From the NCBI GenBank assembly GCA_046051965.1, contig JBJONG010000018.1:13094-77093 (forward strand): 64,000 bases of DNA. The letters are read 5' to 3'. This stretch comes from Verrucomicrobiota bacterium (GTDB lineage Bacteria > Verrucomicrobiota > Verrucomicrobiia > Verrucomicrobiales > Akkermansiaceae). The position numbers were made by a program, and so were the translations under genes. The notes beneath the pieces were generated by a model. It did not search any database and was not told the origin of the DNA. It worked only from the letters and a program-made list of their open reading frames with translations. Shown in pieces: positions 29,440-49,966 of this stretch (position 1 is its first letter; the number at the start of each line of letters is the position of its first letter).

Positions 29440-29562
29440 GGTGGGAGAGGATTGTTTAGAAACGGGCGGCGGATTTAGGCTCGGGCATGGGGTGCGTCAA
29501 GGAGAATCCTGCCGCCCAAGGCAGCAACGGGTGATTTTTTTGAAAAACCGGGGGATCGAGAG

Positions 29563-30417: not shown

Positions 30418-30564
30418 GGGGATATTTCCCCATACCGCCATTTGCCGAAGTCCGCAACCCACGACGCACCCGGTACTGGTGCCCTTTTCCTTTCCCTTGA
30501 TCTCAAGCAAAGATCCAACAAGTGCTAGACGGAGCGTGGGTGAACATACAGAATCTCGCCACTA

Positions 30565-32487: not shown

Positions 32488-32520
32488 GAAGACCATATCC
32501 TCTGATAGCTCACAGCCGGA

Positions 32521-33762
32521 TCAACGGATCTCATGGGGCGCGAAGAGGTCGAGTTGCTGCGGCTTCGGTAGGAAACGGGCGCGGAGGCGGTCGGAATCTA
32601 ACAGAAGCGACGAGGGGTTGTAATCGGCGGTGATGAGGAAGGGCTGCACTTTTTTCAGCGAAACACGGAGCCTCACGAGATCGGCGAGGCGGATTTTTCC
32701 GAAGCGGCGGATGTGGAGGATGCGATCCACGTTGCGCACGCCGAGGCCGGGGACGCGGAGGAGGGTCTCGCGGGGGGCGGTTTGGACATCGACGGGGAAA
32801 TCGTGGCGGTTGCGCAGCGCCCAGGCGAGTTTCGGGTCGAGATCGAGGTCGAGGTTGGGTGTTTCGGGGGTGAGGATTTCCGAGGTTTTGAAACCGTAGA
32901 AACGCATCAGCCAATCCGCCTGGTAAAGCCGGTGCTCGCGGACGAGGGGCGGTGCTTTGAGCGGCAGGACGCTGGATGGCTCGGGGATGGGGCTGAAGGC
33001 GGAGTAATAGACGCGCCGCATCTTGAAGTTCCCGTAAAGGTCGTCCGAGCGGGCGAGGAAATCGGCGTCCGTGGAGGCGTCCGCTCCTACTATGACTTGC
33101 GTACTTTGGCCGGTGGCGTGGCGGAGTTTCCTGTCGCCGTTTTTGCGACGCTCGCTGGCTTCATCGAGCTTGGTGCGAATGCGTCCCATCGCGTGGCGGG
33201 TGCGGTGGATGTTTTTCTCGGGGGCGAGGAGGTCGAGGGATTTCTGGGTCGGCAGCTCGAGGTTGATGCTGATGCGGTCGGCGTAGCGGGCGGCGATCTC
33301 GATGAGCTCCGGCGAGGCTTCGGGGATGGTTTTCAGATGGATGTAGCCGCGGAAATCATGCGTCTCGCGCAGGGTGCGGGCGACGTCGATGACCATTTCC
33401 ATGGTGTGGTCGGCGTTGCGGATGATGCCGGAGCTGAGGAACAGCCCCTCGATGTAGTTCCGCTTGTAGAAATCGAGCGTGAGTTTCACCACCTCCTCCG
33501 CCGTGAACGCGGCGCGGCGGACGTTGCTGGAGCGGCGGTTGATGCAGTAGTGGCAATCGTAGATGCAGAGGTTAGTAAGCAGCACCTTGAGCAGCGAGAT
33601 GCAGCGCCCGTCCGGAGCGTAGCTGTGGCAGATGCCCGCGCCGCCGGTGGAGCCGACGCCTTTCCCGCCGAGCGAGTTTCCCCGCACGGCTCCCGAGCTG
33701 GCGCAGGAGGCATCGTATTTGGCGGCGTCGGCGAGGATGGCGAGTTTGGAGTCGAGTTCCAT
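32521..33762 (-). CDS. Putative DNA modification/repair radical SAM protein (TIGR03916)
   Basis: KLAILADAAKYDASC, CxxxCxxC motif CIYDCHYC, REHRLYQADWLMRFYGF and a HhH segment LRVPGLG. Confidence 0.93.
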   Translation of the reverse strand: MELDSKLAILADAAKYDASCASSGAVRGNSLGGKGVGSTGGAGICHSYAPDGRCISLLKVLLTNLCIYDCHYCINRRSSNVRRAAFTAEEVVKLTLDFYKRNYIEGLFLSSGIIRNADHTMEMVIDVARTLRETHDFRGYIHLKTIPEASPELIEIAARYADRISINLELPTQKSLDLLAPEKNIHRTRHAMGRIRTKLDEASERRKNGDRKLRHATGQSTQVIVGADASTDADFLARSDDLYGNFKMRRVYYSAFSPIPEPSSVLPLKAPPLVREHRLYQADWLMRFYGFKTSEILTPETPNLDLDLDPKLAWALRNRHDFPVDVQTAPRETLLRVPGLGVRNVDRILHIRRFGKIRLADLVRLRVSLKKVQPFLITADYNPSSLLLDSDRLRARFLPKPQQLDLFAPHEIR

Positions 33763-33863
33763 GTGTCCATGCGAACACTATCCGGATGCAGCGTGAAAAC
33801 CAGTGGAAAAATCGATAATGCGATCCCGCTTCCGGTTGGGGGCGTTTCTGCTAGGTGTGGGAA

Positions 33864-34967
33864 ATGGACACGGAGGAAATCGGGAAACGGAAGGGCAGGG
33901 ATCTGGTGGCGGCGCTCGATTTCAGGAAACTTCCGAAGGTTTTGCTCCACGAGCATTTGGACGGCGGGCTTCGGCCTTCGACGGTGATCGATCTGGCTCG
34001 GGAGAGCGGATACAAGGGTTTGCCTACGGAAGATGCGGGCGAATTGGCGGCGTGGTTCCATCGCGGCGCGCAACGCGGGAATTTGCCGGAGTATCTGCAG
34101 GGCTTCGCCCATACCTGCGGGGTGATGCAGTCGAAAGCCGCGCTGGAAAGGGTGGCCTACGAGTTCATCGCTGACATGCATGAGGACGGCGTGGTCTATG
34201 CGGAAGTCCGCTTCGCCCCGCTGCTGCACACCGAGGGCGGGCTCTCGCAGGACGAGGTGGTGAACGCCGTGCTGAAAGGCCTGCGTCGCGGGGAAAAGGA
34301 TTTCGGCGTGAAATGGGGCCTCATCATCTGCGCCCTGCGACACCTCACAGACTCGATGGTTGCAGCCGAACTCGCCATCCGCTGGCGCGATGCGGGCGTG
34401 GTCGGCTTCGACCTCGCGGGCGGCGAATCCGGCTTTCCCCCGAAGAAACACGTCGATGCCTTCCATGCGATCCAGCGCGCCAATTTCCACATCACGATCC
34501 ACGCCGGCGAGGCCTTCGGGCTGGAGTCGATCTGGCAGGCGCTGCAATATTGCGGCGCGCACCGCCTTGGTCACGCGACCCGGCTCAGGGACGACATCCA
34601 CGTCATGGACGACGGCTCGCTGAAACTCGGCACCCTCGCCCAATACGTGCTCGACTGCCGCATCCCGCTGGAAATGTGCCTTTACTCGAACCTCCACACC
34701 GGCGCCTGCCACGACCTCGCGCAGCATCCCTTCGGCCTCTTTTTCCGCAACGGCTTCCGCGTCTGCCTCAACACCGACGACCGCCTGATGAGCGACACCA
34801 CCATGACGAAGGAAACCATCCTCGCCGCGGAGCTTTTCGACCTCAGCCTCGCGGAGATCGAGAAACTCAGCATCAACGCGATGAAAAGCGCCTTCGCCCC
34901 CTACGGCAAGCGGCTCGAGATCATCTACAACACGATCAAGCCTGGATACGCGGCGTTGCGGGTATGA
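33864..34967 (+). CDS. add: Adenosine deaminase
   Basis: LHEHLDGGLRP, GFDLAGGE, TIHAGE, RLGHAT and NTDD; alternative GTG start at 33855. Confidence 0.92.
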   Translation: MDTEEIGKRKGRDLVAALDFRKLPKVLLHEHLDGGLRPSTVIDLARESGYKGLPTEDAGELAAWFHRGAQRGNLPEYLQGFAHTCGVMQSKAALERVAYEFIADMHEDGVVYAEVRFAPLLHTEGGLSQDEVVNAVLKGLRRGEKDFGVKWGLIICALRHLTDSMVAAELAIRWRDAGVVGFDLAGGESGFPPKKHVDAFHAIQRANFHITIHAGEAFGLESIWQALQYCGAHRLGHATRLRDDIHVMDDGSLKLGTLAQYVLDCRIPLEMCLYSNLHTGACHDLAQHPFGLFFRNGFRVCLNTDDRLMSDTTMTKETILAAELFDLSLAEIEKLSINAMKSAFAPYGKRLEIIYNTIKPGYAALRV

Positions 34968-35009
34968 TTCCTCTTGGCAAGAGCCGCGCCGCCGGGAAAC
35001 CTTTCCGCC

Positions 35010-35798
35010 ATGAACACCAACGCATACCTCAAGGAGCTTTTCGATCTCAGCGGCAAAACGGCGGTCGTAATCGGCGGCACGGGTGAACTCTGCGGCACCA
35101 TGGCCGTCGGCCTCGCGCGGGCGGGAGCCGAGGTGGTGCTGGGCGGACGAATCCCGGAAAAAGCGGAGAAGCGCCTCGCGGAAATCGAGAGCTACGGCGG
35201 CAAGGGATACTTCGTGCCGGTTGACGTCACTTCACGCCAGTCCCTTCATGACATGCTCGAGACCGTGTTGGAAAAATCCGGAGGCGTGGACATCCTCATC
35301 AACGGCGCGGGCACCAACTCGCCGACCCCTTTCCTCGACATCACCGAGGAGGAATACGCCCGCATCATCGATACGAACCTCACCTCCATCTTCCGCGCCT
35401 GCCAGGTCTTCGGGCAGTATTTCGTCGATGAGATGCGCCCCGCCTCCATCATCAACCTCGGCTCCATCTCCGGGCTGAACCCGCTCTCCCGCGTGTTCAC
35501 CTACTCCGCCTCGAAGGCCGCCGTCCACAACCTCACCCGCAACCTCGCCCGTGAATGGGCGGACAAGGACATCCGCGTCAACACCCTCGTCCCCGGCTTC
35601 TTCCCCGCCGAGCAGAACCGCAAGGTGCTCGACGAGTCCCGCGTGCTCGACATCCTCCGCCAAACCCCGGCCTCCCGTTTCGGTAACGCCGAGGAACTCA
35701 TCGGAGCCACCCTCCTCCTCGCCTCATCCAAGGCCGGCTCCTTCATCACCGGCATGGAAATGATCGTCGACGGCGGCTTCCAGGCGATGAGCATTTAG
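35010..35798 (+). CDS. SDR oxidoreductase (KduD/gluconate-5-dehydrogenase-like)
   Basis: [12 protein letters not shown] and YSASK (YxxxK); start reassigned to MNTNAY. Confidence 0.9.
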
Positions 35799-35803
35799 GA
35801 AAG

Positions 35804-35828
35804 TGGCGGCGATCTTCGGTCGCCGCCA
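35804..35828. terminator. GC hairpin with C(UUCG)G loop between the convergent SDR and helicase genes
   Basis: TGGCGGCGA-tcttcgg-TCGCCGCCA. Confidence 0.65.
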
Positions 35829-35835
35829 GTCCACG

Positions 35836-38800
35836 TCAGATCCGCATCAAATAAACCGTGGTTTCATGGCCTTGATCGATCAGATTTGAGACACCACCCG
35901 TCAATTCTAGCAGATACTTAGGGTTAGTAGCTGCAGGCCGACGATTCGAACGACCGCTTGCCGCCGAACTGTTTGTCATCTCAGTTTCACAATGGATTCT
36001 CCGGTCATGGTAGTTGCGGGTTCGCTTATCAAGCCGCAACTGGCCGTCAATCCGGGTGTTGGAGAAGTTTCCTAGCTTCTCCAATCGTTTCTTCAAATTT
36101 TCAAACCGCCTCTGCATTGGAAGTTGATCCCTAAGATTAGCCGCAGGTCCATACTCCAGTTTCAATTCGGCGATAGGTGACGCGGCTATCTCGCCAATCT
36201 CGCGCATAAACTCGAAAAGATAGTCTTCCGCCCAATCCTCCGCCAGACAATAGCGATCCGAAATCCTGAGCCGGGCTATTTTTTTCGCTGCGAGAAATCC
36301 GAATAGTTTCCGGAAATCACGGACTTGCCCGCATCCGAAGTTGAATCTTTCAGCACCCGCTGGAGGGCGCAGTTCATATTCTGAAATTTTTCCTTGGATA
36401 GAGTCATACTTCACCAAATCTTCGGCATTTGGGGTTTTGACGATCAAAACAGATCCCGAATTGATTTCCACAGATGAAAGTGGCTGCAGCGATTGCTCGA
36501 TGATATGAACCCCAGTCCGCTTGCCACCCGGTTCCAGTAAAAGAAAATCCGGAGGATTCGCGATGAACGCACGCTCGATGACCAATGATCCCGAACTCAC
36601 TTCAGGCAGCAAAGACTCAGCGAGTCGTCTTGCCTTTGGCTGTGCGGGATCCTGGAACGAAGGAATGTTGGACGCCCTCAGTGTCACTTTTTTACCATCA
36701 GCGATCCACCGTTTGATCTGCTTCCACCCTTTAAATGTTTCCAAAACGGGAAGTTCCACCGTGCCCTCCTCTTGCATCGGAATATCACCCCCAAAATCTC
36801 CCAGAGATCTAGAAAACACCACGATCTCAGTAGAATTTTTCAGCAATACATCCAGCACTTCCCGGCTGATTTCCGTCCCGCCCATTTCCTGAACCGTCTT
36901 CCGCTTGAGTCGCAAGACGCCTTCAAACCAATCAAGTGCTTCGATCCTGCGGAAATCATCCCAGTAACGCTGGTTTGTGAAACTCCTTAGACACCCGGAG
37001 CAACTCGCCGAGCATCCTTTCGAGCACGTGAGCACATGGATGGCTTCGCGAAAAAGTTTCTCGAAATCCCCGCCGACCACACGCTCGCTATATCCGGCAC
37101 CACCGGATACGCTGTCGAAAAGAACGATCTCCAACCCGCTCGAAAGCGGTCGATACGTCACACCGAGCTCCCGTTCTGGAATCTGGTAAAGATTCGCCGC
37201 AGCCTTTCTGAGAGCCTCAATGATCGTCCGGCAGACGATCTCGCGATCAAGAGCAGTTCCATCGGTAGCCAAAGCCAGCGGCACGATTCTACCGACTCTG
37301 ATCTGGGCGACATCGGTATAAAAACTGTGAGCTAGATCAAAACCACCGAACGACAAGCCCTGATCGCAGGCTGAATCAGAGTATGGCAGACGATGAGGCT
37401 CCATCGCTCTCCGGCTATTCGGCACCGGCTCGCTGTAGCCGCAGCGACAGCTGCGAAAACCTCCGCCGCGACCACGGTTGATGATGACAAGCTGGGCATC
37501 CCGCGCCTTTCTCGAAGCATACGAAACTTCCTGCAGAACCGTCCCTTGGAAATGGGAATCAGGTGCGCCCGTGACCAGTTGGGTTTCCATTGCTGGCTTT
37601 GGGATCTCCCGGCTACTACGTGGTTCCTTTCCACGACGTTCGTAAAAAGCGGTGGAGAAACAGGATGGTTCGATGAAGGGGCGTGGCGTGCTTCCCGGAT
37701 CGCTCTGGCAAGCCGGGCATAGCTTAGGTAGATCGTCCTTTTGATCTGCCGTTACAATGTGTCGGCACTGTCCGCAGGTGATGTAGTACATCGTCGGTCT
37801 AAACTCGCGTGGTTGGTAAGGAATGCAGCGAGAGGTCCAGATTCTCCCGTTCGCGACCACCTCTGCCCCTGGAGCGTATTCGGTGATTCCCAGTTTCGCG
37901 TCACGAACCAACTCGATCTGGTCGGTGCTCCAGCGATTCTCCTTCACGATTTCCAGCTCGATGCTATCGACTGGGAAACTGTATGTCGGGATCATTCCGT
38001 GTCGTGAAAGGAAATTCACGATTGGCTGGTTCGCCCAGCGGTAAGCGTTTTCACGGAGATAATCGCTTCTTCCCCCCGCATTATGTGCTTCTCTCGCTTT
38101 CGCCGTGTAGTAGCGGTAACGTTGTGCGAACTTTTCGGAGAGAATCGTCATCCCTTCGACGAACCGCTGGACAAGGAAGACCTGTTCCCCACCAAGAAAA
38201 GTTATTTCCTCAGCCGTAAGACCGTCATTGATCGAGAGTATTTCGAACAAATCCGCGCAGGCGGTCTTCGCCGGTTTGGATTCTGTTCCGTTAATCCAAA
38301 CTGCGAGGCCAGAGAGAAACGCAGCCTCTTCCTGCTCACCATAAGTGATCCGCGAGGGATCAGCGGGAGTGACATTGTTTCCCGTTAGATCGAAGCGGGT
38401 CAGACCAAAGAGTTCCCCGATCTGTAGGCCTCTGCCAATAAGAGCTAGGTGGGTAAGAAAATCTCCGAGCAAAATGGAAAACTGATGGCGCTCGAGCAAT
38501 CGCTGGTTCCCAAGGTGGACGGTTGGCGTAGGCGGTGCCTTTGTGAGGAATTGCTGGGCTTCCTCGAATTGCAACTGATCGTAGTTTCTGTTGCGGGCGA
38601 AAGTAACTGCCACGGGAGCCGCTTGCGCCCGTCGCCCGGCACGTCCCGCCCGCTGCTGATAATTTGAAATTTCCGGGGGAACGTTTCTCAGGAATACCCC
38701 TTCTAGATCCCCGAGATCAATCCCGACCTCCATCGTCGTCGAAGATGAAAGGACGTTCACTTGCTGCTTCTTGAATTTTTCCTCGATCTTCTCACGCTCA

Positions 38801-41800
38801 TCAGCGGAAATTGCAGCCGTATGTTCTCGCACGATCGCAGAAGGAAACGCGCCTTCCTGCAATCCTGAGTAAAGGAAGCGGTAGTGGTTTTCATTTTGAC
38901 GAGTCTCCCATTCCACTTTGGGAATCTCTCTCATTTCTCCGCCGCAGTTCCACTTGGTGCATTTTCCTCCTACCGGATGCGCTGTGATGTGGACACAGCG
39001 GGTGCATCCAAATCGAGGCGTATTTCCATCGCTTAGCTTGATCTTTATCCGGGAGGAATCCAGCACTCGAATCAGGTTGCTATCCGGTGTTTCTACGAGA
39101 AGAGGATTATCATTATCCTGACCCAACAGGCTCCACACGCTTCGCAAAACATCCTCCCAATTCCCCAACCCCAACTGATCCCGCAATACGTGTCTGAAAC
39201 TGGTCGCGTAGGAATTCCCAGCAGCATTGTAATTCAAAAAGCAAAATCTCGCCAACCCCGGCTCCTTGCCCTCAAGCCGGTACGCGCGATCAGCCTGAGC
39301 GTAACTCCCCCACACAAAATCATCTTTCGCGCTAATACCTCGCGGCAACGTCACCGCCCTGCGATTGCGTAACGTGTCCACGATCCAACGGACAAGGTTT
39401 CCTCCGATTACAGAAGGAATACCCGAATCATTTGCGACAGCATCAAACTCGATATTGCCAAACTCAATATCCACGAGACCAAGTTCCTCGAGCGATGTCC
39501 GGCTTCCCCCTGGCGCACTGAACTCACGGTAGAGATGTCCTGCGATCAAAGTCTCACGGTCATCTTCCGATGGAATTTTATTATCCTTGTCTGTCAGCCC
39601 GTGCTTCAGAATAGGTAGTCTGGCCAACTCGACTGAAAGTTCTTTTAGACGAATGTTTCCTTCTCTTTTAAGAATCCTCAGCAGCTCCCGCTTCACAAGA
39701 ATCTCCTCGTGCGAGCGCTGGAAGTAGGGATAGAAGAACGCGGCATCCTGGCGACTATCGCTGAATACCAGCATGTTTCGCCCGCGTCCGGGTGTTTTTC
39801 GCCTCGTAGTCTCGTCGGCTTTGATTGTTGGCAAATGAGAGTATAGAACTTCGCTAATTGTCGTAGAAAACGCCTGATCGCCCTGATGAAAGCCGGTAAT
39901 AATTTCCGACTCGTCTCGGCTTCCGCAAGATTCGCACTCGGTAAAGCGATCACGCAGGTCTGGATTCTCCGCGAGTTCCTCGGGAGTCGGCCTGGTGCTT
40001 TTCGCATAATCGCATAGCGCCCATTCCGATGCGTCCTCGTCTCCGAGGTCATCCCTGAGAGTTCCATTCTTGAGATGGATAAACACAGGCCGCAGGGTGG
40101 TTTGCGCAGAGTCGTCTTCCATCTCCTCATGTTGCAAGCGGTTACGCTGCGGTTTAATCCAAAAGAGCGTTCGTTTCCGTCCACTCTCGTAAATAGGCGA
40201 GAGGCTTCGTTCACCACCTATACGATCCGCCTCATATCCCTCGATGTAGAGTTCCCCGCATTTGCGGCAGGTCATCAGACGGTAGCGTTGCCCGTCGGTG
40301 CGATTTCCAAAATTTCTACGGAATTGCAGATCGCAGGCACCCTCTGGATTTTCGCTGGGATGCGCGAGCCGGACGGTCGCTTCCTCGATGCCTTTCGTGA
40401 AAAAGTGATACCGGGCGGGTAGTAGCGGAAAGTCCTGTTTCCTCAGCCTAGCGAAAGCGCCCATGGCGACCACGCCCTTCAGAGCTTCGAGTCGATTTCC
40501 CGATTCCGGGAAAAGCTCATCCGCCAGTTCGCTGAAATCAACCACTGACCTGTCAGCCAGTATCCGGGATATTCGCCGCACCACCGGTTCTTTCGCAAGC
40601 AAGCGGCACAACTGTCCCGCAAGATTGTCGGAGGCCTCATCCACTTCAAACCTGCTGATTCCCGCAGCCCGGATTTTTTCATTCCACGCGGAACATGAAG
40701 CACCGCCTAGGCGAACTTCTTTTAGCACCCTGTGCGAAGCTTGCCACTCATCGTCCGAAAGACCCGCGACCGATTCTCCCACGGCCAGCAATTCGTGAGT
40801 CTCCCTCTTCGAGGTGATCACATCTTCCTGTTTGAACGCCGCACCAAACAGACGTGACGCGAACTTCGCGACATCGCGCTTCGCCTGCTCCCCTTCCCCG
40901 AGGCTGGCACTGGTCGCGATGCAACGGATTTCCTCATCGCCGCCGAATTTTACCCTCAACTTCCTTAACAGCAGAGCTACTTCACTGGCCTGCGTTCCCG
41001 CATAAATGTGCACCTCATCGAGCACAAGAAACTTGAGCTTCGAGCGGGTGAACAAAGCACGGTTCTGCGGCAGGAGCAGCAAGTGCTCGAGCATCGCGTA
41101 GTTTGTCACCAGCACATTGGGAGGTGTTAGTAGCATCTCATCGCGGGAAAGAAGCCAGTTCGGCGGAATCCGATTGCCGAGCAGTGCTTTCATCGAATCC
41201 CTTGCCAACAGTTCGTCAGCGAGTTGAGCGCGGGTTTTCCGCCTATCGGTCTGGCCGGTGAATCGACCGATGCTGATTCCGTAATCCTCCAGTTCCTTTG
41301 CCAGGATCGGCACGAGTCGGCTGTAAAGCTGGTCGTTCGCGAGCGCGTTCAGTGGGTAGATGAGAATGGCTCTGATACCATCCTTGTTTTTCAAATCCTC
41401 CTTCAACAACGCATCCAACATCGGGTAAAGGAAAGTCTCCGTCTTTCCCGAACCGGTGCCGGTAGCCACCACGATGTTCTTTTTCCCGACCACGCGCCGT
41501 ATCGCAATCTCCTGATGTTCATGCAACTTTCTGTAGCGGTAAACATCCTCAGGGAGTTTGGAAAATCCTTCATGGATCACATTATCATTCACCAGCGATT
41601 CCAGCGTTGCCCCTTTTGGAAAATCCGGCAGAGCCTCGAGAAACGGCCCCTTGACCAGTGTGTCGGGAGCGCGGAACTGCGTCCTGGCCGCTTCCCGCAG
41701 ACGGGGAAAACGACGGCTGATTGGGAGAGCGGTAAGCAAATACCGCTCCATCCGATCACGAAGATCCTCCTCCAGATGGATAGGGTCAACTTCTATGGGG

Positions 41801-41817
41801 TCGATGAGTGATGACAT
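35836..41817 (-). CDS. DEAD/DEAH SF2 helicase with DUF1998 and a C-terminal PLD/MIT_C-like extension (DruE/MrfA-related)
   Basis: GTGSGKT, YPLNALANDQ, TNYAMLE, LDEVH, SAS, FSDSRQDAA, EHTA, STTMEVGIDLG and NYQQRAGRAGR; several CxxC clusters; DUF1998 CSKGCSASCSGC; tail with SDRY and HDRRI. Confidence 0.88.
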   Translation of the reverse strand: MSSLIDPIEVDPIHLEEDLRDRMERYLLTALPISRRFPRLREAARTQFRAPDTLVKGPFLEALPDFPKGATLESLVNDNVIHEGFSKLPEDVYRYRKLHEHQEIAIRRVVGKKNIVVATGTGSGKTETFLYPMLDALLKEDLKNKDGIRAILIYPLNALANDQLYSRLVPILAKELEDYGISIGRFTGQTDRRKTRAQLADELLARDSMKALLGNRIPPNWLLSRDEMLLTPPNVLVTNYAMLEHLLLLPQNRALFTRSKLKFLVLDEVHIYAGTQASEVALLLRKLRVKFGGDEEIRCIATSASLGEGEQAKRDVAKFASRLFGAAFKQEDVITSKRETHELLAVGESVAGLSDDEWQASHRVLKEVRLGGASCSAWNEKIRAAGISRFEVDEASDNLAGQLCRLLAKEPVVRRISRILADRSVVDFSELADELFPESGNRLEALKGVVAMGAFARLRKQDFPLLPARYHFFTKGIEEATVRLAHPSENPEGACDLQFRRNFGNRTDGQRYRLMTCRKCGELYIEGYEADRIGGERSLSPIYESGRKRTLFWIKPQRNRLQHEEMEDDSAQTTLRPVFIHLKNGTLRDDLGDEDASEWALCDYAKSTRPTPEELAENPDLRDRFTECESCGSRDESEIITGFHQGDQAFSTTISEVLYSHLPTIKADETTRRKTPGRGRNMLVFSDSRQDAAFFYPYFQRSHEEILVKRELLRILKREGNIRLKELSVELARLPILKHGLTDKDNKIPSEDDRETLIAGHLYREFSAPGGSRTSLEELGLVDIEFGNIEFDAVANDSGIPSVIGGNLVRWIVDTLRNRRAVTLPRGISAKDDFVWGSYAQADRAYRLEGKEPGLARFCFLNYNAAGNSYATSFRHVLRDQLGLGNWEDVLRSVWSLLGQDNDNPLLVETPDSNLIRVLDSSRIKIKLSDGNTPRFGCTRCVHITAHPVGGKCTKWNCGGEMREIPKVEWETRQNENHYRFLYSGLQEGAFPSAIVREHTAAISADEREKIEEKFKKQQVNVLSSSTTMEVGIDLGDLEGVFLRNVPPEISNYQQRAGRAGRRAQAAPVAVTFARNRNYDQLQFEEAQQFLTKAPPTPTVHLGNQRLLERHQFSILLGDFLTHLALIGRGLQIGELFGLTRFDLTGNNVTPADPSRITYGEQEEAAFLSGLAVWINGTESKPAKTACADLFEILSINDGLTAEEITFLGGEQVFLVQRFVEGMTILSEKFAQRYRYYTAKAREAHNAGGRSDYLRENAYRWANQPIVNFLSRHGMIPTYSFPVDSIELEIVKENRWSTDQIELVRDAKLGITEYAPGAEVVANGRIWTSRCIPYQPREFRPTMYYITCGQCRHIVTADQKDDLPKLCPACQSDPGSTPRPFIEPSCFSTAFYERRGKEPRSSREIPKPAMETQLVTGAPDSHFQGTVLQEVSYASRKARDAQLVIINRGRGGGFRSCRCGYSEPVPNSRRAMEPHRLPYSDSACDQGLSFGGFDLAHSFYTDVAQIRVGRIVPLALATDGTALDREIVCRTIIEALRKAAANLYQIPERELGVTYRPLSSGLEIVLFDSVSGGAGYSERVVGGDFEKLFREAIHVLTCSKGCSASCSGCLRSFTNQRYWDDFRRIEALDWFEGVLRLKRKTVQEMGGTEISREVLDVLLKNSTEIVVFSRSLGDFGGDIPMQEEGTVELPVLETFKGWKQIKRWIADGKKVTLRASNIPSFQDPAQPKARRLAESLLPEVSSGSLVIERAFIANPPDFLLLEPGGKRTGVHIIEQSLQPLSSVEINSGSVLIVKTPNAEDLVKYDSIQGKISEYELRPPAGAERFNFGCGQVRDFRKLFGFLAAKKIARLRISDRYCLAEDWAEDYLFEFMREIGEIAASPIAELKLEYGPAANLRDQLPMQRRFENLKKRLEKLGNFSNTRIDGQLRLDKRTRNYHDRRIHCETEMTNSSAASGRSNRRPAATNPKYLLELTGGVSNLIDQGHETTVYLMRI

Positions 41818-41822
41818 ATTTT

Positions 41823-44800
41823 TTAGGAAATGTTAGATGGTGAAAATGCGAGATCGAAGAGAGCCACGTAGAAAGCGAAGAGTTCCGGACCAAAGCTAAA
41901 AAGCTGGGAAACCGTGAGTCCTTCGCCGGGTTTATTTGGAAAACTGAGAAGTTTCTCGAGGCGGGAACTGGCCTCGGATTCATTCGCTTTCCCGTGGGCC
42001 GCTAGGCGGCAGAGTCCAGCGACGCACCAGATCATGTTAGCAAGACGACGAGAGTCTTCATTCGCCAAACCAGGAGGAACCCAATAGGCATTAAAATTTC
42101 CCGCTGGCCCACGAAATTCCATACGAATACCCGCCCGTTCCTTAATGAAAATCGCAGCGGATTCAACGTTCCGCTGCACCGCCTCCAGTCCGATCGTAAG
42201 CCACCGAAGATCTCTCCGATTTTCTTGTTGGCTTGTTTGTGCTAGAATTCTTGTTCTTCCGTTCAGCTTTACTACAGCTTCGAGAAGGTGCGATGGTGAC
42301 AAAAGCAGGCCGTCTTTCTCGGCATCAAAGTTAGGTTCACCCAGCGAAGATAAAAAATTCTGAAAATCGAAACTTCCCAGATCTCCTGATCCTGAACTTT
42401 TCACAAAAGACCACCGCTCGAATGCCGAAAAACAATTCAAGTTGATGGATGGTGACTGCTCAAAAATTTCACTCTTCGCGAATTCAATCAAACCGCCGAT
42501 AGATTGTATTTTCACCCCGAGCATCAACGAAGATTCAAGACGCCCGACAGTCTCCTCGCTATCCGGCGATTCAACTCCTGCCAACCGTAGTAGAACCTGC
42601 GGCGCTATTCCAAAGAGGAATAACTTCACTTTCGCATGCTCACGCATTTGCGAAAACTCTGCCAATTCATGAATCCCTTCTTGCCACCACGCGGAATGAT
42701 CGGCGGTCGTAAAAGGTTGACGGCTTGCCGCAAGAATCCACGGCCAGTTTTCCAGCCATACGGCGCAGTGCCTCGATTCTCCGCTCGACCATACCGTGGA
42801 GGGATATTGGAAATTCAATACGTCACGACAGAGTCGCAGGGCATCACGGATTTCATCATCCGACATTGCGCTGAGCTTCGCGTTGACTTCCGCATCGACC
42901 TTTCCTCCTTTCGGCTTTCTTGCGCCGAAAAGATACATCCACCACGGCTCGCCCTCCGGCATCCGGGTGACACCGAAGACGGGAAACCTTAACTTCGAGT
43001 AGCCATGTTCCTCACGCGCGTGAACGAAATCCCATTCTTCGCGAGATGAAGCCCTGTGAACCAAGTCGAGAAAATAGAAGCCCTGCGGGATGATGTCCCG
43101 GTCGATTTGCAAAGAAACTCTCAACGAAGATTGGTCCTTGTGGCGGTTCGGTTTGGCGTGAACCGCAATTCCTTCCCCTAGATCCATTTTGATGTCGTCG
43201 AATAGCTCGTCGGTCACATCGCCTGGCTCTTCTACCGTACGCCGGAGCGCGATGCTTTTCACGTAGCCTGACTGCCGACAGGTGAGGTCATCACCAAGGT
43301 TTCGAATTCTCACACCGACTTCATACAACTCCGCCATCGGCAGGTTGATCGACCAGCGATCATAATTCCCTTCAGTTTTTGGATGGGGACGCTGGGTGCT
43401 CAATGGCCGCCTAATACGGAAAAGGTGAACCTTCGCACCGCCAGCGTTTTCCGCCCAAACCTTGCCGTGCCCCTGAAACATGAGTGACAGGCTTGCCAGC
43501 GAGACCACCTCCACGGTTCTTGTCGGCGACAGGGAAACCACATGCTCTCCATTGCAAAGAATTTTCCAGACTTCAAAGCCCCCAGAAGAGAATCGGATTC
43601 TTCTTCTGTCGCTTTTCAGCGCGATCAGTTCCTCATTATGCTGAATGGAATGTGCTTCGGGATCGTCTGGAGAAAATTGTTCGCAGCGGATTCCGGGACG
43701 TTTCAAAGAAAGAGTGGTTCCGTCATTCAATCGAATCTGAACATGCGGACATTTCATGCCGCCTTCGAAAACGAGATCGTCACCCTGTTTCTTCAAACCA
43801 ACCGATTTGGCTAAGTCCACATTTCCTGGAAACTCTACCAGATGGAATCCCCGTCTCTCATCCACCTCGGACAAACCTTTCCAATAGTAGATCTCACTCG
43901 CCACCGTCCGGTCACCCCACTTTGCCTTCAATACAATTCGGTGGATTCCAGGTTCTCGCATCCGTGTATGATTTGTGATAATTTCATCGAGAACTACGGA
44001 TTCCCTCAAGGCGGATTCACCTGTTGATGGAGAAATCCGGATGGGCGATTCCTCGCTCCCGATCCTCAGCATCGCGTGGCTTTCTCCTTTGTCATGCAGC
44101 CACAGCCGTAGTCCGGCCTGCTCTCCCCAACATAATCTGCTGCCATCATCAAGAAGGAGGCTGCCACCCAGCCCCCCGAAGTAGAACTGGTTCCTGAACT
44201 CACAAGTGAGGGAGATTTTCCGCCCGCGAAATGAGAGATTCACCGCCGGATCCCCCGGGCGAAACTCCGGCAGACTGGCCACCGATGGAACATCGCCATG
44301 GAAAGCACAAACCCTGAAACCGTTTTTCCGGACAAAGCACTCATCATCCGATCCTCCTTCCGCTTCCGGGTGTGTGAGGACATGATACGCTCCTGGTGTA
44401 AGTGAAATCACATCTCCCGCTCTTGTCCTCGTTTCCTTTCCGGTTCCGTATTGGAATATCCGAAAAGGTGTCGTCTCGTTGAACCCACTTTCCAGCTCGA
44501 ATGGGAGAGCTGCTTTGCCATCGCGCAGACCATCCAATTCGATCTTATAGTTGCGGGCCTCCGCATCAATTCGAATAACGACTTCATGGCGTGCCCATCG
44601 CGACACCCCATCGACTCTCCACACGGTCTTCTCGTCCGCCATTGCGGGTGGTACTGCGGGTAGAACCATCACCAAAGATTCATCGAACGGGTCGTATGCA
44701 AGGTGAGGACGAGGTAGGATGCGGTTTCTTCCCGTGGATTTCTCGGCAGCGAAGGCCTTGCGCAGGTGCTCGGGCAGTGCGGCTTCATCCCCCTGATAAA

Positions 44801-45590
44801 AAGATACCAGGCGGGAAACGAGCATCCCGCCTACTTCCGATTCGAGGATGTCCTTGAGATTCTTGCTGTGATGGCAATGGGTAGCCAAAACCTTTGAGAA
44901 TTGGTTGCATCCGGTCACGTCGTCTGAGGATGGCAGGTATTGCTGATGGTTAAACGCAGCACGGTAGGCGGACGTGAGATATGAACGGCCATCCAGCTCC
45001 CAACAATGGATGATGCCGGCTTGGAAAAGGAAGGGGGCGATGTTACGGCGCTCGCCAATTTCCCCGATTCGAAGCCCCAGAATGTGACAAGCCTTTTGGA
45101 ACGCTACGCTGAGATCGGTTCGGTCACCTGAAGGGATTGTCCGCTGCATACCATTTTCAAAGCATGGCCAAAACTCTCTGAGATTATCTTCGGATGTCGC
45201 CCTCACCAGAGCCAGTCCGTATGCAGTGGCGGCAGGATACCGGCTCAACAATCCCACCAGCGATGCGTTGCTTAACTCGATTAATGTCGCTGAGATTGCC
45301 TCCTGTTCTTCCTTTGTAACATCGAGCAATCCGAGAATCGCACTGTCTCTTTCAAACGCGGAAATTTTCTCTCTGATATTCTGATCATAGAGTTCAAGCC
45401 TCTGGAATGCTGTCCGACTAGTTTGTTCCACGTTCGTTCCTTTGGAGTTTTTTGGTTCCGCGCTATTCTGGCGAGAAGATAATTCAGGATCGCACTCATC
45501 CATCTCAGCACGAATAAAGTGATTACCCTCGCGACGTCTTGCCGTGCGGCTTTCAGCCTTGAGGATCTCGGTTCGATCCCAATGCGTCAT
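41823..45590 (-). CDS. Large hypothetical protein, partner of the helicase
   Basis: 1278-codon ORF (41823..45659; start uncertain, 45590 or 45502 plausible) ending 5 bp before the helicase start, with the same lower-GC style. Helical N-terminus, beta-rich middle, helical C-terminus; no recognised family. Confidence 0.8.
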   Translation of the reverse strand: MTHWDRTEILKAESRTARRREGNHFIRAEMDECDPELSSRQNSAEPKNSKGTNVEQTSRTAFQRLELYDQNIREKISAFERDSAILGLLDVTKEEQEAISATLIELSNASLVGLLSRYPAATAYGLALVRATSEDNLREFWPCFENGMQRTIPSGDRTDLSVAFQKACHILGLRIGEIGERRNIAPFLFQAGIIHCWELDGRSYLTSAYRAAFNHQQYLPSSDDVTGCNQFSKVLATHCHHSKNLKDILESEVGGMLVSRLVSFYQGDEAALPEHLRKAFAAEKSTGRNRILPRPHLAYDPFDESLVMVLPAVPPAMADEKTVWRVDGVSRWARHEVVIRIDAEARNYKIELDGLRDGKAALPFELESGFNETTPFRIFQYGTGKETRTRAGDVISLTPGAYHVLTHPEAEGGSDDECFVRKNGFRVCAFHGDVPSVASLPEFRPGDPAVNLSFRGRKISLTCEFRNQFYFGGLGGSLLLDDGSRLCWGEQAGLRLWLHDKGESHAMLRIGSEESPIRISPSTGESALRESVVLDEIITNHTRMREPGIHRIVLKAKWGDRTVASEIYYWKGLSEVDERRGFHLVEFPGNVDLAKSVGLKKQGDDLVFEGGMKCPHVQIRLNDGTTLSLKRPGIRCEQFSPDDPEAHSIQHNEELIALKSDRRRIRFSSGGFEVWKILCNGEHVVSLSPTRTVEVVSLASLSLMFQGHGKVWAENAGGAKVHLFRIRRPLSTQRPHPKTEGNYDRWSINLPMAELYEVGVRIRNLGDDLTCRQSGYVKSIALRRTVEEPGDVTDELFDDIKMDLGEGIAVHAKPNRHKDQSSLRVSLQIDRDIIPQGFYFLDLVHRASSREEWDFVHAREEHGYSKLRFPVFGVTRMPEGEPWWMYLFGARKPKGGKVDAEVNAKLSAMSDDEIRDALRLCRDVLNFQYPSTVWSSGESRHCAVWLENWPWILAASRQPFTTADHSAWWQEGIHELAEFSQMREHAKVKLFLFGIAPQVLLRLAGVESPDSEETVGRLESSLMLGVKIQSIGGLIEFAKSEIFEQSPSINLNCFSAFERWSFVKSSGSGDLGSFDFQNFLSSLGEPNFDAEKDGLLLSPSHLLEAVVKLNGRTRILAQTSQQENRRDLRWLTIGLEAVQRNVESAAIFIKERAGIRMEFRGPAGNFNAYWVPPGLANEDSRRLANMIWCVAGLCRLAAHGKANESEASSRLEKLLSFPNKPGEGLTVSQLFSFGPELFAFYVALFDLAFSPSNIS

Positions 45591-45683
45591 GTTTGAATGC
45601 CCTCGTTTACCCCCCTGCCCAGCTTCGGTTTTCATGGGATGATGAATATTCCCCGGCATGATTTTTGGCTAGACTTTTAGGAC

Positions 45684-45696
45684 TCATACCGTATGA
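45684..45696. promoter_or_regulatory. Candidate LysR binding site (T-N11-A dyad)
   Basis: TCATAC-C-GTATGA, a perfect 13-bp palindrome 10 bp upstream of the LysR ATG in the divergent intergenic region. Confidence 0.6.
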
Positions 45697-45706
45697 TTGA
45701 AGAGTC

Positions 45707-46633
45707 ATGTCAGGAGACCCTCTGCTTAAAAAAGGAATCTCGCTCGAGCGCCTTCATGCCTTCGCAAGCATCGTCTCCAATGGGAGCATCGTGGAAGCGG
45801 CGAAGAGCGATCCCACCCGCCAGAGCCTACTTAGCCGCCAGGTTAAGGAGCTTGAAAGCACGATTGAAATCACACTGCTTGACCGCTCCACCACCCCCCA
45901 CCCCCCAACGGAAGCCGGTAGAAAGTTAGCCCGCTTAATTCAGGATTTCTCCACCGATTTTAGAGATTTCGTAACAACCAACCGCCTCCTGCCCGCGCCG
46001 ATTCTGATTGCATCGAACGAGAGCCTTCTCTCGTGGTTCGTCATTCCAAGGCTCAAGCGTTTGATCGCTGGAGACCAGTCACTCCAGATTGAGCTTCACA
46101 ACCTACGCTCCCCACAAGCGGCGGATTCCCTCCGCACAGGCAAAGTCGATTTTGTCATTCACCACTCATCTGCTGAATTCTCTGATTTCGAAAGCACGCC
46201 CATCGGACACTATGGAGTAAAAGCCTTAGTGCCTCATTCGAAAAAAATTCGCTCGGATTCACCGCTATCCTGGGGCGATTTGCCTCATTGCCCGCTGGCG
46301 CTTTTGGGTGGTTCTGGAAAACTCAGCACGCTTGTAAAGCAACTCGCAGGTGAGACGCCTAACAGGCAGATCATCCATTGTGCCTCCTACAACCAAGTCG
46401 TACGCAGTTGCGCAGAACTTGGCGCTTTGGCAATTCTTCCGGAAATCGCTTGCTTGGGTGTAAAGCCACAAACCCATCTGATCCTTGATCTCAAAGAAAC
46501 CTTGGATTTCAAATACGATGTCCGGCTGTTCTGGAAAAAATCCAGACTCGATAAAAATCTTCTTCTTGGGAAATTTCTAGAAAATTTGTTACGATCAGCA
46601 ACAGGAATTACGGCTCTAAGATTATCGAAATAG
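45707..46633 (+). CDS. LysR family transcriptional regulator
   Basis: N-terminal HTH SLERLHAFASIVSNGSIVEAAK...QSLLSRQVKELESTIEITLLDRS...TEAGRKL and a substrate-binding-type C-terminus (LRTGKVDFVI). Confidence 0.88.
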   Translation: MSGDPLLKKGISLERLHAFASIVSNGSIVEAAKSDPTRQSLLSRQVKELESTIEITLLDRSTTPHPPTEAGRKLARLIQDFSTDFRDFVTTNRLLPAPILIASNESLLSWFVIPRLKRLIAGDQSLQIELHNLRSPQAADSLRTGKVDFVIHHSSAEFSDFESTPIGHYGVKALVPHSKKIRSDSPLSWGDLPHCPLALLGGSGKLSTLVKQLAGETPNRQIIHCASYNQVVRSCAELGALAILPEIACLGVKPQTHLILDLKETLDFKYDVRLFWKKSRLDKNLLLGKFLENLLRSATGITALRLSK

Positions 46634-46841
46634 AGCGTTGGCATTCGACCCTAAAAACTCCACCTCCGTCATATCAGGTGAGGCGTGTAAACACCTTACC
46701 GGTACGGGAAATTTCGTCCAAAATAAAAAGCGTTCCAAGGAACCTACATCAATACCCGACGCATAACGTTGTTCTCCAATTCCCCAGAATCGCATGTGGA
46801 AATTAACCTTGGCATCGCTCCATCTCAACGACCCAGTACCC

Positions 46842-47513
46842 ATGAAAATCGACATCCTCACCCTCTTCCCGGAGATCGCGCTCGCGCCGCTGGCCGATTC
46901 GATCATCCGGCGTGCGCAGGATTCGGGGATCGTGGAGGTGAATGGGCACAATTTGCGCGACTGGGCCGAGGACAAGCACCGCCGCGTGGACGACACGCCC
47001 TGCGGCGGCGGGCCAGGGATGGTCTTGCAGCCGGGGCCGCTGCACGCGGCGATCACGGCGCTGAAAAAAGAAAACACCCGCGTGATCCTAATGACTCCGC
47101 AGGGCGCTCCGCTCAAGCAGGCTCGCGTCCGCGAACTTTCCGCCGAAACCCACCTGCTCATCGTATGCGGCCACTACGAGGGCATCGACCACCGCATTGT
47201 CGAGACGTTGATCGACGAGGAAATCTCCATCGGCGATTACGTCCTCACCAACGGAGCCATCGCCGCTGCGGTTTTGTGCGATGCCGTGATCCGCCTGCTG
47301 CCCGGCGCGCTCGGTGATTCGCAATCCGCCGTCGAGGAATCCTTTTCCGATCCGAACCTGTTGGAAGCGCCGTGCTACACGCGACCCGTCGATTTCATGG
47401 GAATGAAAGTCCCGGAGGTTTTGCTCTCCGGAAACCACGCGAAGATCGGGGCATGGCGCAAGGAAAAGGCGCTTGAACGCACCCTCCAAAACCGCCCTGA
47501 TTTGCACCCATGA
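46842..47513 (+). CDS. trmD: tRNA (guanine37-N1)-methyltransferase
   Basis: MKIDILTLFPE, VDDTPCGGGPGMV, CGHYEGID, SIGDYVLTNG and VPEVLLSGNHAKI. Confidence 0.97.
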   Translation: MKIDILTLFPEIALAPLADSIIRRAQDSGIVEVNGHNLRDWAEDKHRRVDDTPCGGGPGMVLQPGPLHAAITALKKENTRVILMTPQGAPLKQARVRELSAETHLLIVCGHYEGIDHRIVETLIDEEISIGDYVLTNGAIAAAVLCDAVIRLLPGALGDSQSAVEESFSDPNLLEAPCYTRPVDFMGMKVPEVLLSGNHAKIGAWRKEKALERTLQNRPDLHP

Positions 47514-48679
47514 AACCCAGCCTCCTCCTTCTCTTCCTCGCCACCGCCGCTCACGCCAAGACCCTGAAAATCGAGGCCGGCGAACACCATCGCATCAACA
47601 CGGTCGTTACCGTCCCCACTCCCGATGATGTGCTGGAAAACCCCGGCCTGAAAACGGCGGATGGGAAAATCCTGCCGCTGCAGCTCTCCGACGACGGCAC
47701 GGCCAGCTTCATCCTGCCGGAGCTTGCGGCGGGGAAAACGGCGGAGTTCGCGCTCGTTGCCATGGAGAAACCTGCAGATGACATCGCGCTGGCTGAGGAG
47801 AAAGGCGGTGATGTCGCTCTTGGCGTTGGCAAGCGCCCGGTATCCGATTTCGTGGGCAAACGGACGGAGCTGCCCCGCGCGGACATCCCGCCGATCTACC
47901 TGCGCGGCGGCTACCTTCATCCCCTGCGCACACCTACGGGAAACATAGTAACCGACGACTATCCCGCGAACCACATCCACCACCACGGCGTGTGGACGGC
48001 GTGGACGAGCACCGTGTTCCAAGGCCGCAAGCCGGATTTCTGGAACATGGGCGACGGCAAGGGCAAGGTGGATTGCAAGGAGACGGGTTTCTCATGGTCG
48101 GGGCCGGTGCACGCCGGGCTGGAGGCGGAGAACGAATACACCGACCTGACCGGCGGTGCGCCGGTCATAGCGCTGAACGAAAGCTGGACGGTGAAAGCCT
48201 ACGCCGTCTCGGAAAAATTCCACCTGCTGGAACTGGAGTTCGAGCACACGATGGCGGGCGATGACGATCTGAAGCTTCCGGAATACCGCTACGGCGGCCT
48301 CGGAATCCGGGGTGCCAAGGCATGGAACGGCATCGGCACCGTGGATTTCCTGACCTCCGAAGGCCTCACCGACCGCGATGGGGCGAATGGAAAGCCCGCG
48401 CGCTGGATCGCGATGTCGGGAGCGGCGGGGGAGGGGAAAGCGGGCATCGCCATTCTTGGCCATCCGGAAAATTTCCGCGCGCCGCAACCGATCCGTATCC
48501 ATCCCAATGAGCCGTTCATCTCCTTCGCCCCGCAGATGGCGGGGGACATGGAGATCGCCCACGACAAGGCCTACCGCTCCGGATACCGCTTCGTCACCTT
48601 CGACGGTGCACCCGACAAACAGCTCCTCGACCGTCTCTGGAACGACTACGCCACCCCGCCGACTGCGGCTTGGGAGTGA
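47510..48679 (+). CDS. Secreted PmoA-family/DUF6807-like protein
   Basis: Signal peptide; YLHPLRTPTG..VTDDYPANHIHHHGVW, YGGLGIRG and HPENFRAPQP, typical of this PVC/Bacteroidetes family (not a true methane monooxygenase). Confidence 0.75.
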   Translation: MKPSLLLLFLATAAHAKTLKIEAGEHHRINTVVTVPTPDDVLENPGLKTADGKILPLQLSDDGTASFILPELAAGKTAEFALVAMEKPADDIALAEEKGGDVALGVGKRPVSDFVGKRTELPRADIPPIYLRGGYLHPLRTPTGNIVTDDYPANHIHHHGVWTAWTSTVFQGRKPDFWNMGDGKGKVDCKETGFSWSGPVHAGLEAENEYTDLTGGAPVIALNESWTVKAYAVSEKFHLLELEFEHTMAGDDDLKLPEYRYGGLGIRGAKAWNGIGTVDFLTSEGLTDRDGANGKPARWIAMSGAAGEGKAGIAILGHPENFRAPQPIRIHPNEPFISFAPQMAGDMEIAHDKAYRSGYRFVTFDGAPDKQLLDRLWNDYATPPTAAWE

Positions 48680-49797
48680 GCGCGTTTTCCAAGATCCTCC
48701 AGCGCAGCCATGAAGGCGTCATAGGCCGCCTGCGGGTTGCGGTAGGGGGAGAAGTAGCTTGTCACCTGGCCGTCGCTGCCGCCTTTGGTGGACATCCAGT
48801 AGAGGTGGTCCGATGACTGGAGCGCACCCCATGCGGCGATGAGTTTTGCGTCGCCGCCGGCCATCACCGGCGTTTCGAGGGAGCGGATTTTCGCGAGCGC
48901 CTCTTTCTGCATCGCGTTGCCCGTCCATGCGGAGAGGTCGCGCTCGGCGTCCGCCCACGAGGTGGCGCGGGGGCAATCGTATTCGCGTATCGCCGGATAG
49001 ATCGCCACGGCCTCGGAGGGCGTGACCCATTGGGAGCCGGATTCGATCAGGATTTCCGGAACTTTCCGCCAGAACTCATAGATGCCCTGCTCCTTTTTCT
49101 GGTGCTCGCCGATCGATTCGTAATCCATGAAAAGGTTCACGAGATCGCCGGGCGATTGGCCGACCCAAGCGGTGAATTTTTCCCACGTCAGCGGGAAGCC
49201 GGACCATGAGGGATCGGAGAAACGGAAGGCGAGGTCGTTGGAAAGCGTGTGGTTGCGCAGCAGGGTCTTGATGCGCGCGGTGTCGGGCGCGCGGTAGAGG
49301 AAGTTGGGGGAAATGCCGTCGGTGAAAGCCGGAGTGCCTTCGGCGATCACGCCATCGAAGCCAAGCGTCTCCGCCCGCGCGGCGATCGCGTTGTCATAGA
49401 TCAGCTCCGAGTTCCGGAACACCTTCGGGCGCACGGAGAAGCACTGCTCCATGAGATCGAGGTGCATGTCGGACTGGCGTTGGAATTCCTTTTCCGAATA
49501 GAGGAAAGCGAGCGAATGATGATACGTTTCCGCGAGCAGCTCCACGCCGCCGGTGGCGACGAGTTCCTGGAAGGACTCCAGCACGTCCGGTCTGAATTTC
49601 CGGAACTGCTCGATGACCGTGCCGGTGAGTGAGAGCGCCATGCGGAACAAGCCGTGGCTTTCCTCGATGCGTTTTCTGAACATGTCGTTGGCGGGCAGGT
49701 AGCACCTGTCGGCCACACGGTTGAGGATCTCGCGGTTGAGCTTTTCATCGAGTCGGTGCGGCTGGTGCACCTGGAAATAGAGGCAAACGTCGGGCAT
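48646..49797 (-). CDS. Glycoside hydrolase family 57 (alpha-amylase-like)
   Basis: YFQVHQP, FRNSELIY (nucleophile Glu), FMDYESIGEHQ (acid/base Asp) and SWADAERDLSAW; start reassigned to MPDVCL. Confidence 0.9.
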   Translation of the reverse strand: MPDVCLYFQVHQPHRLDEKLNREILNRVADRCYLPANDMFRKRIEESHGLFRMALSLTGTVIEQFRKFRPDVLESFQELVATGGVELLAETYHHSLAFLYSEKEFQRQSDMHLDLMEQCFSVRPKVFRNSELIYDNAIAARAETLGFDGVIAEGTPAFTDGISPNFLYRAPDTARIKTLLRNHTLSNDLAFRFSDPSWSGFPLTWEKFTAWVGQSPGDLVNLFMDYESIGEHQKKEQGIYEFWRKVPEILIESGSQWVTPSEAVAIYPAIREYDCPRATSWADAERDLSAWTGNAMQKEALAKIRSLETPVMAGGDAKLIAAWGALQSSDHLYWMSTKGGSDGQVTSYFSPYRNPQAAYDAFMAALEDLGKRAHSQAAVGGVA

Positions 49798-49966
49798 GGG
49801 TTGTGGAGGGTTGGGGAGAAGCGGAGGCCGCCATGAATCGCAGGAGAGAGCAAGGGTGTTGTCGGCTGGCCGATATCCTAATAGCAACACGCAGGCCAAG
49901 GCCAGCCTAACGCTTGATTGGGCGCATGAAACCGCTGAATGGGCGGAGCATATCGGCAACCCCTTC

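Follow-up and report, generated by a model that had tools for sequence, protein, structure and literature searches.

The window analysed here, the whole 64,000-nucleotide stretch given above, comes from a freshwater bacterium of the Verrucomicrobiota (GenBank assembly GCA_046051965.1, contig JBJONG010000018.1, positions 13,094–77,093). Between an SDR gene and trmD it carries an island of low guanine-cytosine (GC) content that was inserted as an 11-kb segment. It is probably an anti-phage system of two genes that was acquired horizontally, is of the Druantia type III kind and came with its own LysR-type regulator. The helicase belongs to the DruE family, and its gene (druE) is immediately preceded on the same strand by one large accessory gene with a gap of 5 bp, which is the type III layout. 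The product of this accessory gene, hereafter the partner, matches the Druantia protein DruH in size, gene position and predicted shape, and not in sequence. We regard the system as a divergent relative of Druantia type III-A, that is, a variant (subtype) and neither a plain member nor a new kind of system, because the partner is not DruH by sequence and DruE appears to lie outside the modelled type III clade. An earlier reading of this DNA, made from the sequence alone and here called the sequence-only reading, had pointed to the DruE-like helicase and the two-gene Druantia III layout and had suggested a new subtype or system; the family and the layout are supported by the present analysis, the subtype is a reasonable reading, and the new system is not.

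DruE models of PADLOC match the helicase at E-values of 1e-98 to 3e-183, including 610 bits for DruE1 (E 3.4e-183) and 524 bits for DruE3 (E 3.2e-157), and the best YprA-like model of NCBIfam gives 97 bits. The DruE1 model ranks highest, but this is not diagnostic of type I Druantia, because a bona fide type III-A DruE of Escherichia coli (L015), used for calibration, scores 571 bits on DruE1 and 2180 bits on DruE3. Pfam assigns DEAD, Helicase_C and C-terminal MZB/DUF1998 domains to the protein, which corresponds to the Druantia signature of a large YprA-like superfamily 2 (SF2) helicase. Sequence matches in the PDB include a 2108-amino-acid (aa) DruE-like protein (9tu7_Y, E 4.5e-65) and YprA (6znp), and more than 115 full-length DruE homologues share 38–53% identity with the window protein. 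Six CxxC motifs fit the zinc modules of defence YprA helicases (PMC12458937). The GKT Walker A, DEVH and HDR motifs listed by the sequence-only reading are present, and all DruE motifs required by the mechanism proposed below are conserved (Table 1).

The tail of DruE (residues ~1640–1993) has no sequence-based match. Its AlphaFold (AF2) model, built from 16 tails (predicted local distance difference test score, pLDDT, 87.6), has the PLD-like C-terminal domain of MITD1 as its top Foldseek matches (4a5z/2ymb, TM-score 0.70), and the model as a whole aligns with two-lobed PLD enzymes. The tail therefore reads as two consecutive PLD-like domains, of which the first is predicted to be inactive because it is without the conserved His/Asp. 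Among 115 homologues, I-x-D-R-Y and H-D-R … E-x-x-G-G are conserved in the tail, and D1854-R-Y1856 and H1937-D-R1939 are invariant or near-invariant. In type III-A DruE, a first, inactive PLD domain has been described together with a second, active one, which has 4A5Z and 2ymb as best matches (Bell et al., PMC12458937), and the same tail build was found in the DruE of Pseudomonas aeruginosa (PaDruE) (Loeff et al., 10.64898/2026.05.13.724313). The PaDruE pocket residues include D1917-R1918-Y1919 and H1999-x-R2001, and the substitutions D1917A and R1918A abolish defence (10.64898/2026.05.13.724313). The last PLD-like domain of the window protein has a corresponding D-R-Y … H-x-R pocket, in which the DRY-to-HxR spacing is 83 residues vs 82 in PaDruE. 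Since the twin PLD-like pair is already known from type III-A DruE, the tail is a standard and probably active part of such proteins; its description in the sequence-only reading as an extra nuclease-like feature is not supported.

The partner gene forms an open reading frame (ORF) of 1278 aa from its first ATG. The real start is probably the ATG at 45590 (M24, with GAGG before it) or that at 45503 (M53), because members of the family of ~1190 aa align from about residue 80. No match to the partner was found in Pfam, NCBIfam or PADLOC, even at E≤10, nor by a profile search of the PDB. A word-indexed search of 5.8 billion proteins returned the partner itself and a single protein with 23% identity, and an exhaustive HMMER search of 1.84 billion cluster representatives yielded 88 relatives (43 below 1e-30), mostly of 1170–1215 aa, and mostly from Verrucomicrobiota with one Ralstonia megaplasmid in addition. 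In the AF2 model of the partner (31-sequence alignment, pLDDT 81.7, predicted TM-score 0.75), an N-terminal helical domain is followed by about 6–7 immunoglobulin (Ig)-like β-sandwich domains, which span ~580 residues, and by a C-terminal helical domain (Table 1). Foldseek matches of this model in the PDB are multi-Ig proteins, e.g., Ig1–6 of RPTP-sigma and Ig1–6 of contactin, and the searches of BFVD and of a PDB copy older than the DruH depositions gave generic Ig-array proteins only.

The pairing of the two genes is conserved. A partner homologue lies directly upstream of a DruE of the same clade in 15 of the 15 other loci in which the contig extends downstream (L001, L003, L004, L006, L008–L014, L016–L019), and the paired DruE is full length, including the PLD tail, in all cases in which the contig covers the gene to its end. 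The named sources of these loci are metagenome-assembled genomes (MAGs) of Luteolibacter, Verrucomicrobiales, Opitutales and Akkermansiaceae, with one outlier on the megaplasmid of Ralstonia solanacearum SL3022 (L016; CP023017.1). There, an unannotated ORF of 1142 aa upstream of DruE (5570–8998) matches the partner profile (hhalign probability 99.6%, E 1.5e-24); a survey from 2020 counted SL3022 as an incomplete type I Druantia (PMC7251935). Between loci, DruE proteins share 40–48% identity and partners 22–30%, and this faster divergence of the partner mirrors the asymmetry reported for DruH and DruE.

The surroundings of the pair in these genomes often are a defence-island signature, and the proposed anti-phage function is based on this context. 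One locus (L017) is flanked by BREX genes (PglZ/BrxL), a TIR-STING and CD-NTase CBASS and GmrSD, another (L019) by BrxE/A/B/C/PglX and a WYL regulator, a third (L014) by AAA_15, type I restriction–modification (RM) and GmrSD genes, and a fourth (L012) by genes for AlbA_2, TOTE-like and WYL proteins. Co-occurrence of homologues in defence islands had been proposed as a check in the sequence-only reading, and the lack of enrichment that it named as counter-evidence is contradicted by these neighbours (BREX, CBASS, RM, GmrSD).

The island is a discrete insertion, because a metagenome contig with ~90% nucleotide identity to the window (L020) has an empty site in which the SDR and trmD genes directly abut: the SDR stop codon is followed after 5 bp by the trmD start (ATG AAA ATC GAC), and this 5-bp spacer is replaced in the window by 11.04 kb (35798–46840). 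The GC fraction is 0.50–0.56 over 35.8–46.8 kb vs 0.60–0.63 in the flanks. The low-GC block between SDR and trmD and the positions of its three ORFs, including the short gap between the giant ones, are as the sequence-only reading gave them; its placing of the block end at 46633 is correct for the last ORF, but the island itself runs to 46840. The depth of the island in lake metagenomes equals that of the flanks of its own strain, and contigs of related strains diverge at exactly 35790 and 46840, into different unrelated sequence; the SDR/trmD junction is thus apparently a variable site. The block contains no ORF for an integrase or methylase, no tRNA gene was found around the insert, and direct and inverted repeats flanking it are at chance level; for integrase, methylase and direct repeats this is in line with the sequence-only reading. 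The clean empty site, together with a LysR gene within the insert, makes this a simple case for the mobilisation and regulation of Druantia without an integrase.

Canonical DruH of E. coli (STY4851/ECs_5259, i.e., the YjiT family) has 1119 aa, contains PF27205 and PF27201, and scores 2544 bits on the DruH3 model of PADLOC. Its fold consists of a helical domain at the N-terminus, six Ig-like domains and a further helical domain at the C-terminus (10.64898/2026.05.12.722862), and both cryo-electron microscopy papers on DruH report ICAM/NCAM-like fold matches and no informative sequence matches. The partner model, set against the published description of DruH, has the same order of parts. Baseplate-J-like similarity has also been reported for DruH and was not reproduced with the partner model in BFVD. 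The evolution of DruH is reported to be much faster than that of DruE, and because the same holds within the partner family, a loss of detectable sequence similarity between partner and DruH is expected. The preferred reading, held with moderate confidence, is that the two are homologous.

Several results weigh against this reading and against the assignment built on it. None of 31 members of the partner family matched the PADLOC DruH models; the partner is without PF27205, PF27201 and the NCBIfam match for STY4851/ECs_5259; BLASTP between partner and DruH gave nothing; hhalign of the 31 partner sequences against 29 DruH sequences returned a probability of 0.13%; and neither domain-wise hhalign nor reciprocal hmmsearch with filters off (--max) gave anything. 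The partner family is so diverged, as judged from these comparisons, that no DruH model or profile recognises it. The DruH-like architecture is a likeness between a predicted model and a verbal description. The window DruE appears to stand outside every PADLOC subtype clade (610/524 bits vs 2180 bits for the bona fide type III protein), the step assigned to the partner is the weakest in the proposed mechanism, and a search for expression evidence found no RNA-seq run holding the locus. The sequence-only reading had named strong DruE and DruH matches together as the mark of a known Druantia III, and PADLOC gives the former and not the latter. Its remark that the partner could not be matched to DruH is borne out by every model, but not in the sense of an unrelated kind of protein, as the predicted architecture is DruH-like by description.

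The same negative comparisons are what a new Druantia type would produce, in which a non-homologous helical-ended Ig-array protein, perhaps sensing something else, has taken the place of DruH and DruE alone is shared. Druantia types are defined by swaps of accessory genes around DruE, the window DruE appears to fall outside the type I–IV clades of the PADLOC hidden Markov models, and Ig-like arrays are common and could be convergent. We nevertheless consider this unlikely: the length of the partner (~1190 vs ~1120 aa), its position, its coupling to druE and the three-part order all coincide with DruH, and the fast evolution of DruH accounts for undetectable similarity. It is accordingly doubtful, if worth keeping in view, that the partner is an independently recruited Ig-array protein providing a different trigger for DruE. 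The system would then be a fifth Druantia type, found mainly in Verrucomicrobiota and ligand-responsive in some lineages, through LysR (three loci) or through the Sigma70_r4/α-CTD-like N-terminus fused to long forms of the partner (see below).

An incomplete or decaying type I Druantia, i.e., a lone and non-working DruE1-like helicase beside an unrelated hypothetical gene, would account for DruE1 as the best PADLOC model in the absence of DruA–D and for the listing of SL3022 as incomplete type I (PMC7251935), and a 58-bp frameshift variant of druE as well as a partner gene broken by insertion sequence (IS) copies (both described below) would suit it too. It is very improbable, given that bona fide type III DruE has nearly as high a DruE1 score (571 bits), that both giant ORFs are intact, and that the tail described for type I DruE is an inactivated Vsr and not twin PLDs; moreover, the pair is kept in 15 of 15 loci across 22–48% identity, which implies purifying selection on both genes. 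The YprA core and MZB domain of DruE, together with a LysR regulator of the sort typical of metabolic and stress operons, could instead be taken to indicate that the helicase is of the MrfA/YprA type and has a housekeeping role in DNA repair, with LysR controlling it and an accessory protein. Hardly any weight can be given to this idea: a 90%-identical relative does not have the block, the GC content of which is foreign, relatives of the block sit among BREX, CBASS, RM and GmrSD genes, and the helicase (~2000 aa) has regions specific to DruE as well as a PLD tail, its score being 610 bits on DruE as opposed to 97 bits on the YprA-like model.

Among described systems, type III-A Druantia (E. 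coli ATCC 8739/EDL933, P. aeruginosa) is the closest. It shares with the window the operon of two genes, partner then DruE; a DruE of ~2000 aa with SF2 core, zinc modules, MZB, two MITD1-like PLDs and DRY…HxR; a faster-evolving partner of ~1100–1200 aa with helical–Ig–helical build (predicted in the window); and the location in defence islands. It differs in that the window partner has no detectable similarity to STY4851/ECs_5259 (YjiT; PF27205/PF27201; PADLOC DruH3), in the DruE3 score of the helicase (524 bits vs 2180 bits for E. coli), in the hosts (mainly Verrucomicrobiota as opposed to Gammaproteobacteria), and in that the window insert carries LysR and is without a Zorya II or ARMADA II companion. 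Type III-B, the "type III-like" branch of Bell et al. (2025), is likewise a two-gene DruH–DruE system, on a DruE branch apart from III-A. Its DruE is described as more compact and usually without a nuclease domain, although the branch occasionally carries PLD domains (Bell et al., 2025), whereas the window DruE is full length with both PLD-like domains.

Type I Druantia (DruA–E) resembles the window in that the best single PADLOC match of the helicase is DruE1, and differs in the inactivated Vsr tail of its DruE, where the window protein has PLDs; it was rejected because PADLOC and Pfam detect no DruA (DUF4338), DruB, DruC or DruD in the insert. DISARM, which has split DrmA/DrmB, the PLD nuclease DrmC and a methyltransferase, was rejected because helicase and MZB are fused in one ORF, DrmA matches are weak (E 1e-15), and there is no methylase ORF. 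ARMADA combines a YprA-like helicase that has a Vsr tail with a BrxHII-like helicase and a PglX-like methyltransferase; it was rejected because the insert holds just three genes and the tail has a PLD and not a Vsr fold. The repair pair MrfA/YprA–MrfB is similar in its helicase core, OB-CON-MZB canopy and expected 3′–5′ polarity, and in that a helicase is paired with a partner that processes DNA ends. MrfA, however, is a protein of ~750 aa that lacks a PLD tail, has no Ig-rich partner and is not carried on islands.

The mechanism that we propose follows analogy with the type III systems of E. coli and P. aeruginosa. The partner and druE would probably be translationally coupled. DruE, a member of the YprA/MrfA family that contains zinc modules, MZB and two PLD-like domains, would be an ATP-driven 3′-to-5′ SF2 helicase and, as in the type III studies of 2026, may act as an autoinhibited dimeric 3′–5′ helicase-nuclease that engages junctions of single-stranded (ss) and double-stranded (ds) DNA. 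The partner may bind or trim exposed ssDNA or 3′ ends of phage replication and recombination intermediates and may sense infection; DruE would then load at ss/dsDNA junctions, unwind the duplex and degrade phage DNA via its PLD domain. The phage would be cleared without killing of the cell, i.e., without abortive infection. The probable role of LysR is to adjust transcription from the common divergent promoter region. The step of the partner is the weakest, partly because published accounts of DruH disagree, describing it as an ssDNA binder, a 3′–5′ exonuclease or a sensor-nuclease.

The partner family, which would have the same architecture without retained sequence, offers a natural comparison for the disputed function of DruH: features that survive in both families, such as pockets and DruE interfaces, should mark what is essential. 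Since Pfam, NCBIfam and PADLOC v2 (2023) miss the partner, searches with these models either overlook such loci or rate them as incomplete, which was the case for Ralstonia SL3022. With a model made from the ~88 representatives, these systems would be recovered in Verrucomicrobiota and elsewhere. The finding carries a much-studied system into a phylum in which present tools overlook it; it introduces no new principle.

Table 1. Features of the island and its genes (window coordinates; residue numbers refer to the protein or model named).
Feature	Position	Strand	Basis or remark
Inserted low-GC island	35798..46840	.	L020 empty site, GC profile, lake-metagenome contig breaks
GC-rich hairpin GGCGGCGA-TCTTCGG-TCGCCGCC	35799..35830	.	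Between convergent SDR/druE stops; part of insert
druE, putative 1993-aa YprA/MrfA-like SF2 helicase-nuclease	35836..41817	-	PADLOC, Pfam, PDB
Second PLD-like (MITD1-like) domain, ~res 1816-1993	35839..36372	-	Foldseek, motif conservation
First PLD-like domain, ~res 1640-1815	36373..36900	-	AF2, Foldseek, conservation; predicted inactive
MZB/DUF1998 zinc-binding domain, res 1534-1610	36988..37218	-	Pfam PF09369, E 5e-10
Helicase motif VI QRAGRAGR, res 1055-1062	38632..38655	-	Intact
DEVH box, helicase motif II, res 267-270	41008..41019	-	Intact
Walker A GTGSGKT, res 120-126	41440..41460	-	Intact
Candidate DruH-like partner gene, 1278-aa ORF from first ATG	41823..45659	-	5-bp gap to druE
Predicted C-terminal helical domain of partner, model res 827-1199	41826..42944	-	AF2 model
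Predicted central ~6-7 Ig-like β-sandwich domains of partner, model res 240-816	42975..44705	-	AF2, Foldseek
Predicted N-terminal helical domain of partner, model res 1-235	44718..45422	-	AF2 model
Divergent control region, 47-203 bp	45504..45706	.	Between LysR ATG and possible partner starts
LysR-type regulator, 308 aa, divergent from partner gene	45707..46633	+	Pfam HTH_1 and LysR_substrate
AT-rich non-coding right end of insert	46634..46840	.	L020 comparison

Besides druE and the partner gene, the insert holds the LysR gene, the GC-rich hairpin at its left end and the AT-rich right end (Table 1). The LysR protein has weak ArgP/LysG-like matches in NCBIfam, far below the cut-offs. A divergent LysR gene occurs in 3 of about 14 loci, namely the window, L006 (34% identity) and L012 (26% identity), and in none of the others; we take it to be an optional regulator, carried along with some copies of the system, and not a core component. 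The dedicated LysR of the sequence-only reading is accordingly right as to its place inside the insert, and the association is sporadic. The divergent control region contains one sigma-70-like site on the + strand (45670–45697), the match of which is no better than chance, and terminator and promoter scans of the junctions and of this region gave nothing above chance. The hairpin is absent from L020 and failed a scan for terminators with a T-run.

To the left of the island lies the SDR gene (34974–35798), with an adenosine deaminase gene before it, and to the right the gene for the TrmD-family methyltransferase. The longest trmD ORF begins at 46794, and its first 16 codons are inserted DNA by comparison with L020; because of this comparison, the ATG at 46843 (MKIDILTLFPEIA) is most likely the actual trmD start.

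Long forms of the partner form a subgroup, comprising the protein of L001 (819–5624, P0002) and nine representatives of 1600–1750 aa. They have an N-terminal extension of ~500 aa with Sigma70_r4 and RNA-polymerase α-CTD-like DNA-binding domains. In L001, DruE is split into a gene of 1351 aa (helicase) and one of 562 aa (MZB and tail).

Disrupted copies of both genes were also seen. In a Verrucomicrobiales MAG (L007, 10001–15022), the partner gene, which is broken by two DDE_Tnp_1_4 IS copies, is not followed by DruE, and the system is present there as a decayed copy. Over 10 kb, a JGI metagenome contig (L002) is 100% identical to the window apart from a 58-bp deletion (window 40569–40626), which frameshifts druE near residue 398, and Logan contigs of run X2 likewise break, at 40568/40674. 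Either a loss-of-function variant occurring naturally in the population or an artefact of assembly may account for the deletion.

A second segment of the window (29553–34966) is also missing from L020. It holds a DUF4130 gene (29563–30510, - strand) and a radical-SAM gene (32521–33762, - strand), a pairing that belongs among predicted DNA-repair/modification gene pairs. Between them lies the gene for a low-GC 640-aa Schlafen/AlbA_2 protein (30565–32487, + strand), which has weak PADLOC matches to a domain of pAgo-associated SIR2-PNTD proteins (E 9e-9). A further small insertion with a defence or regulatory role is a possible reading of this segment. On the right side of trmD, the DUF6807 and GH57 genes (47501–49956) are likewise missing from L020, and the neighbourhood is therefore mosaic between close relatives.

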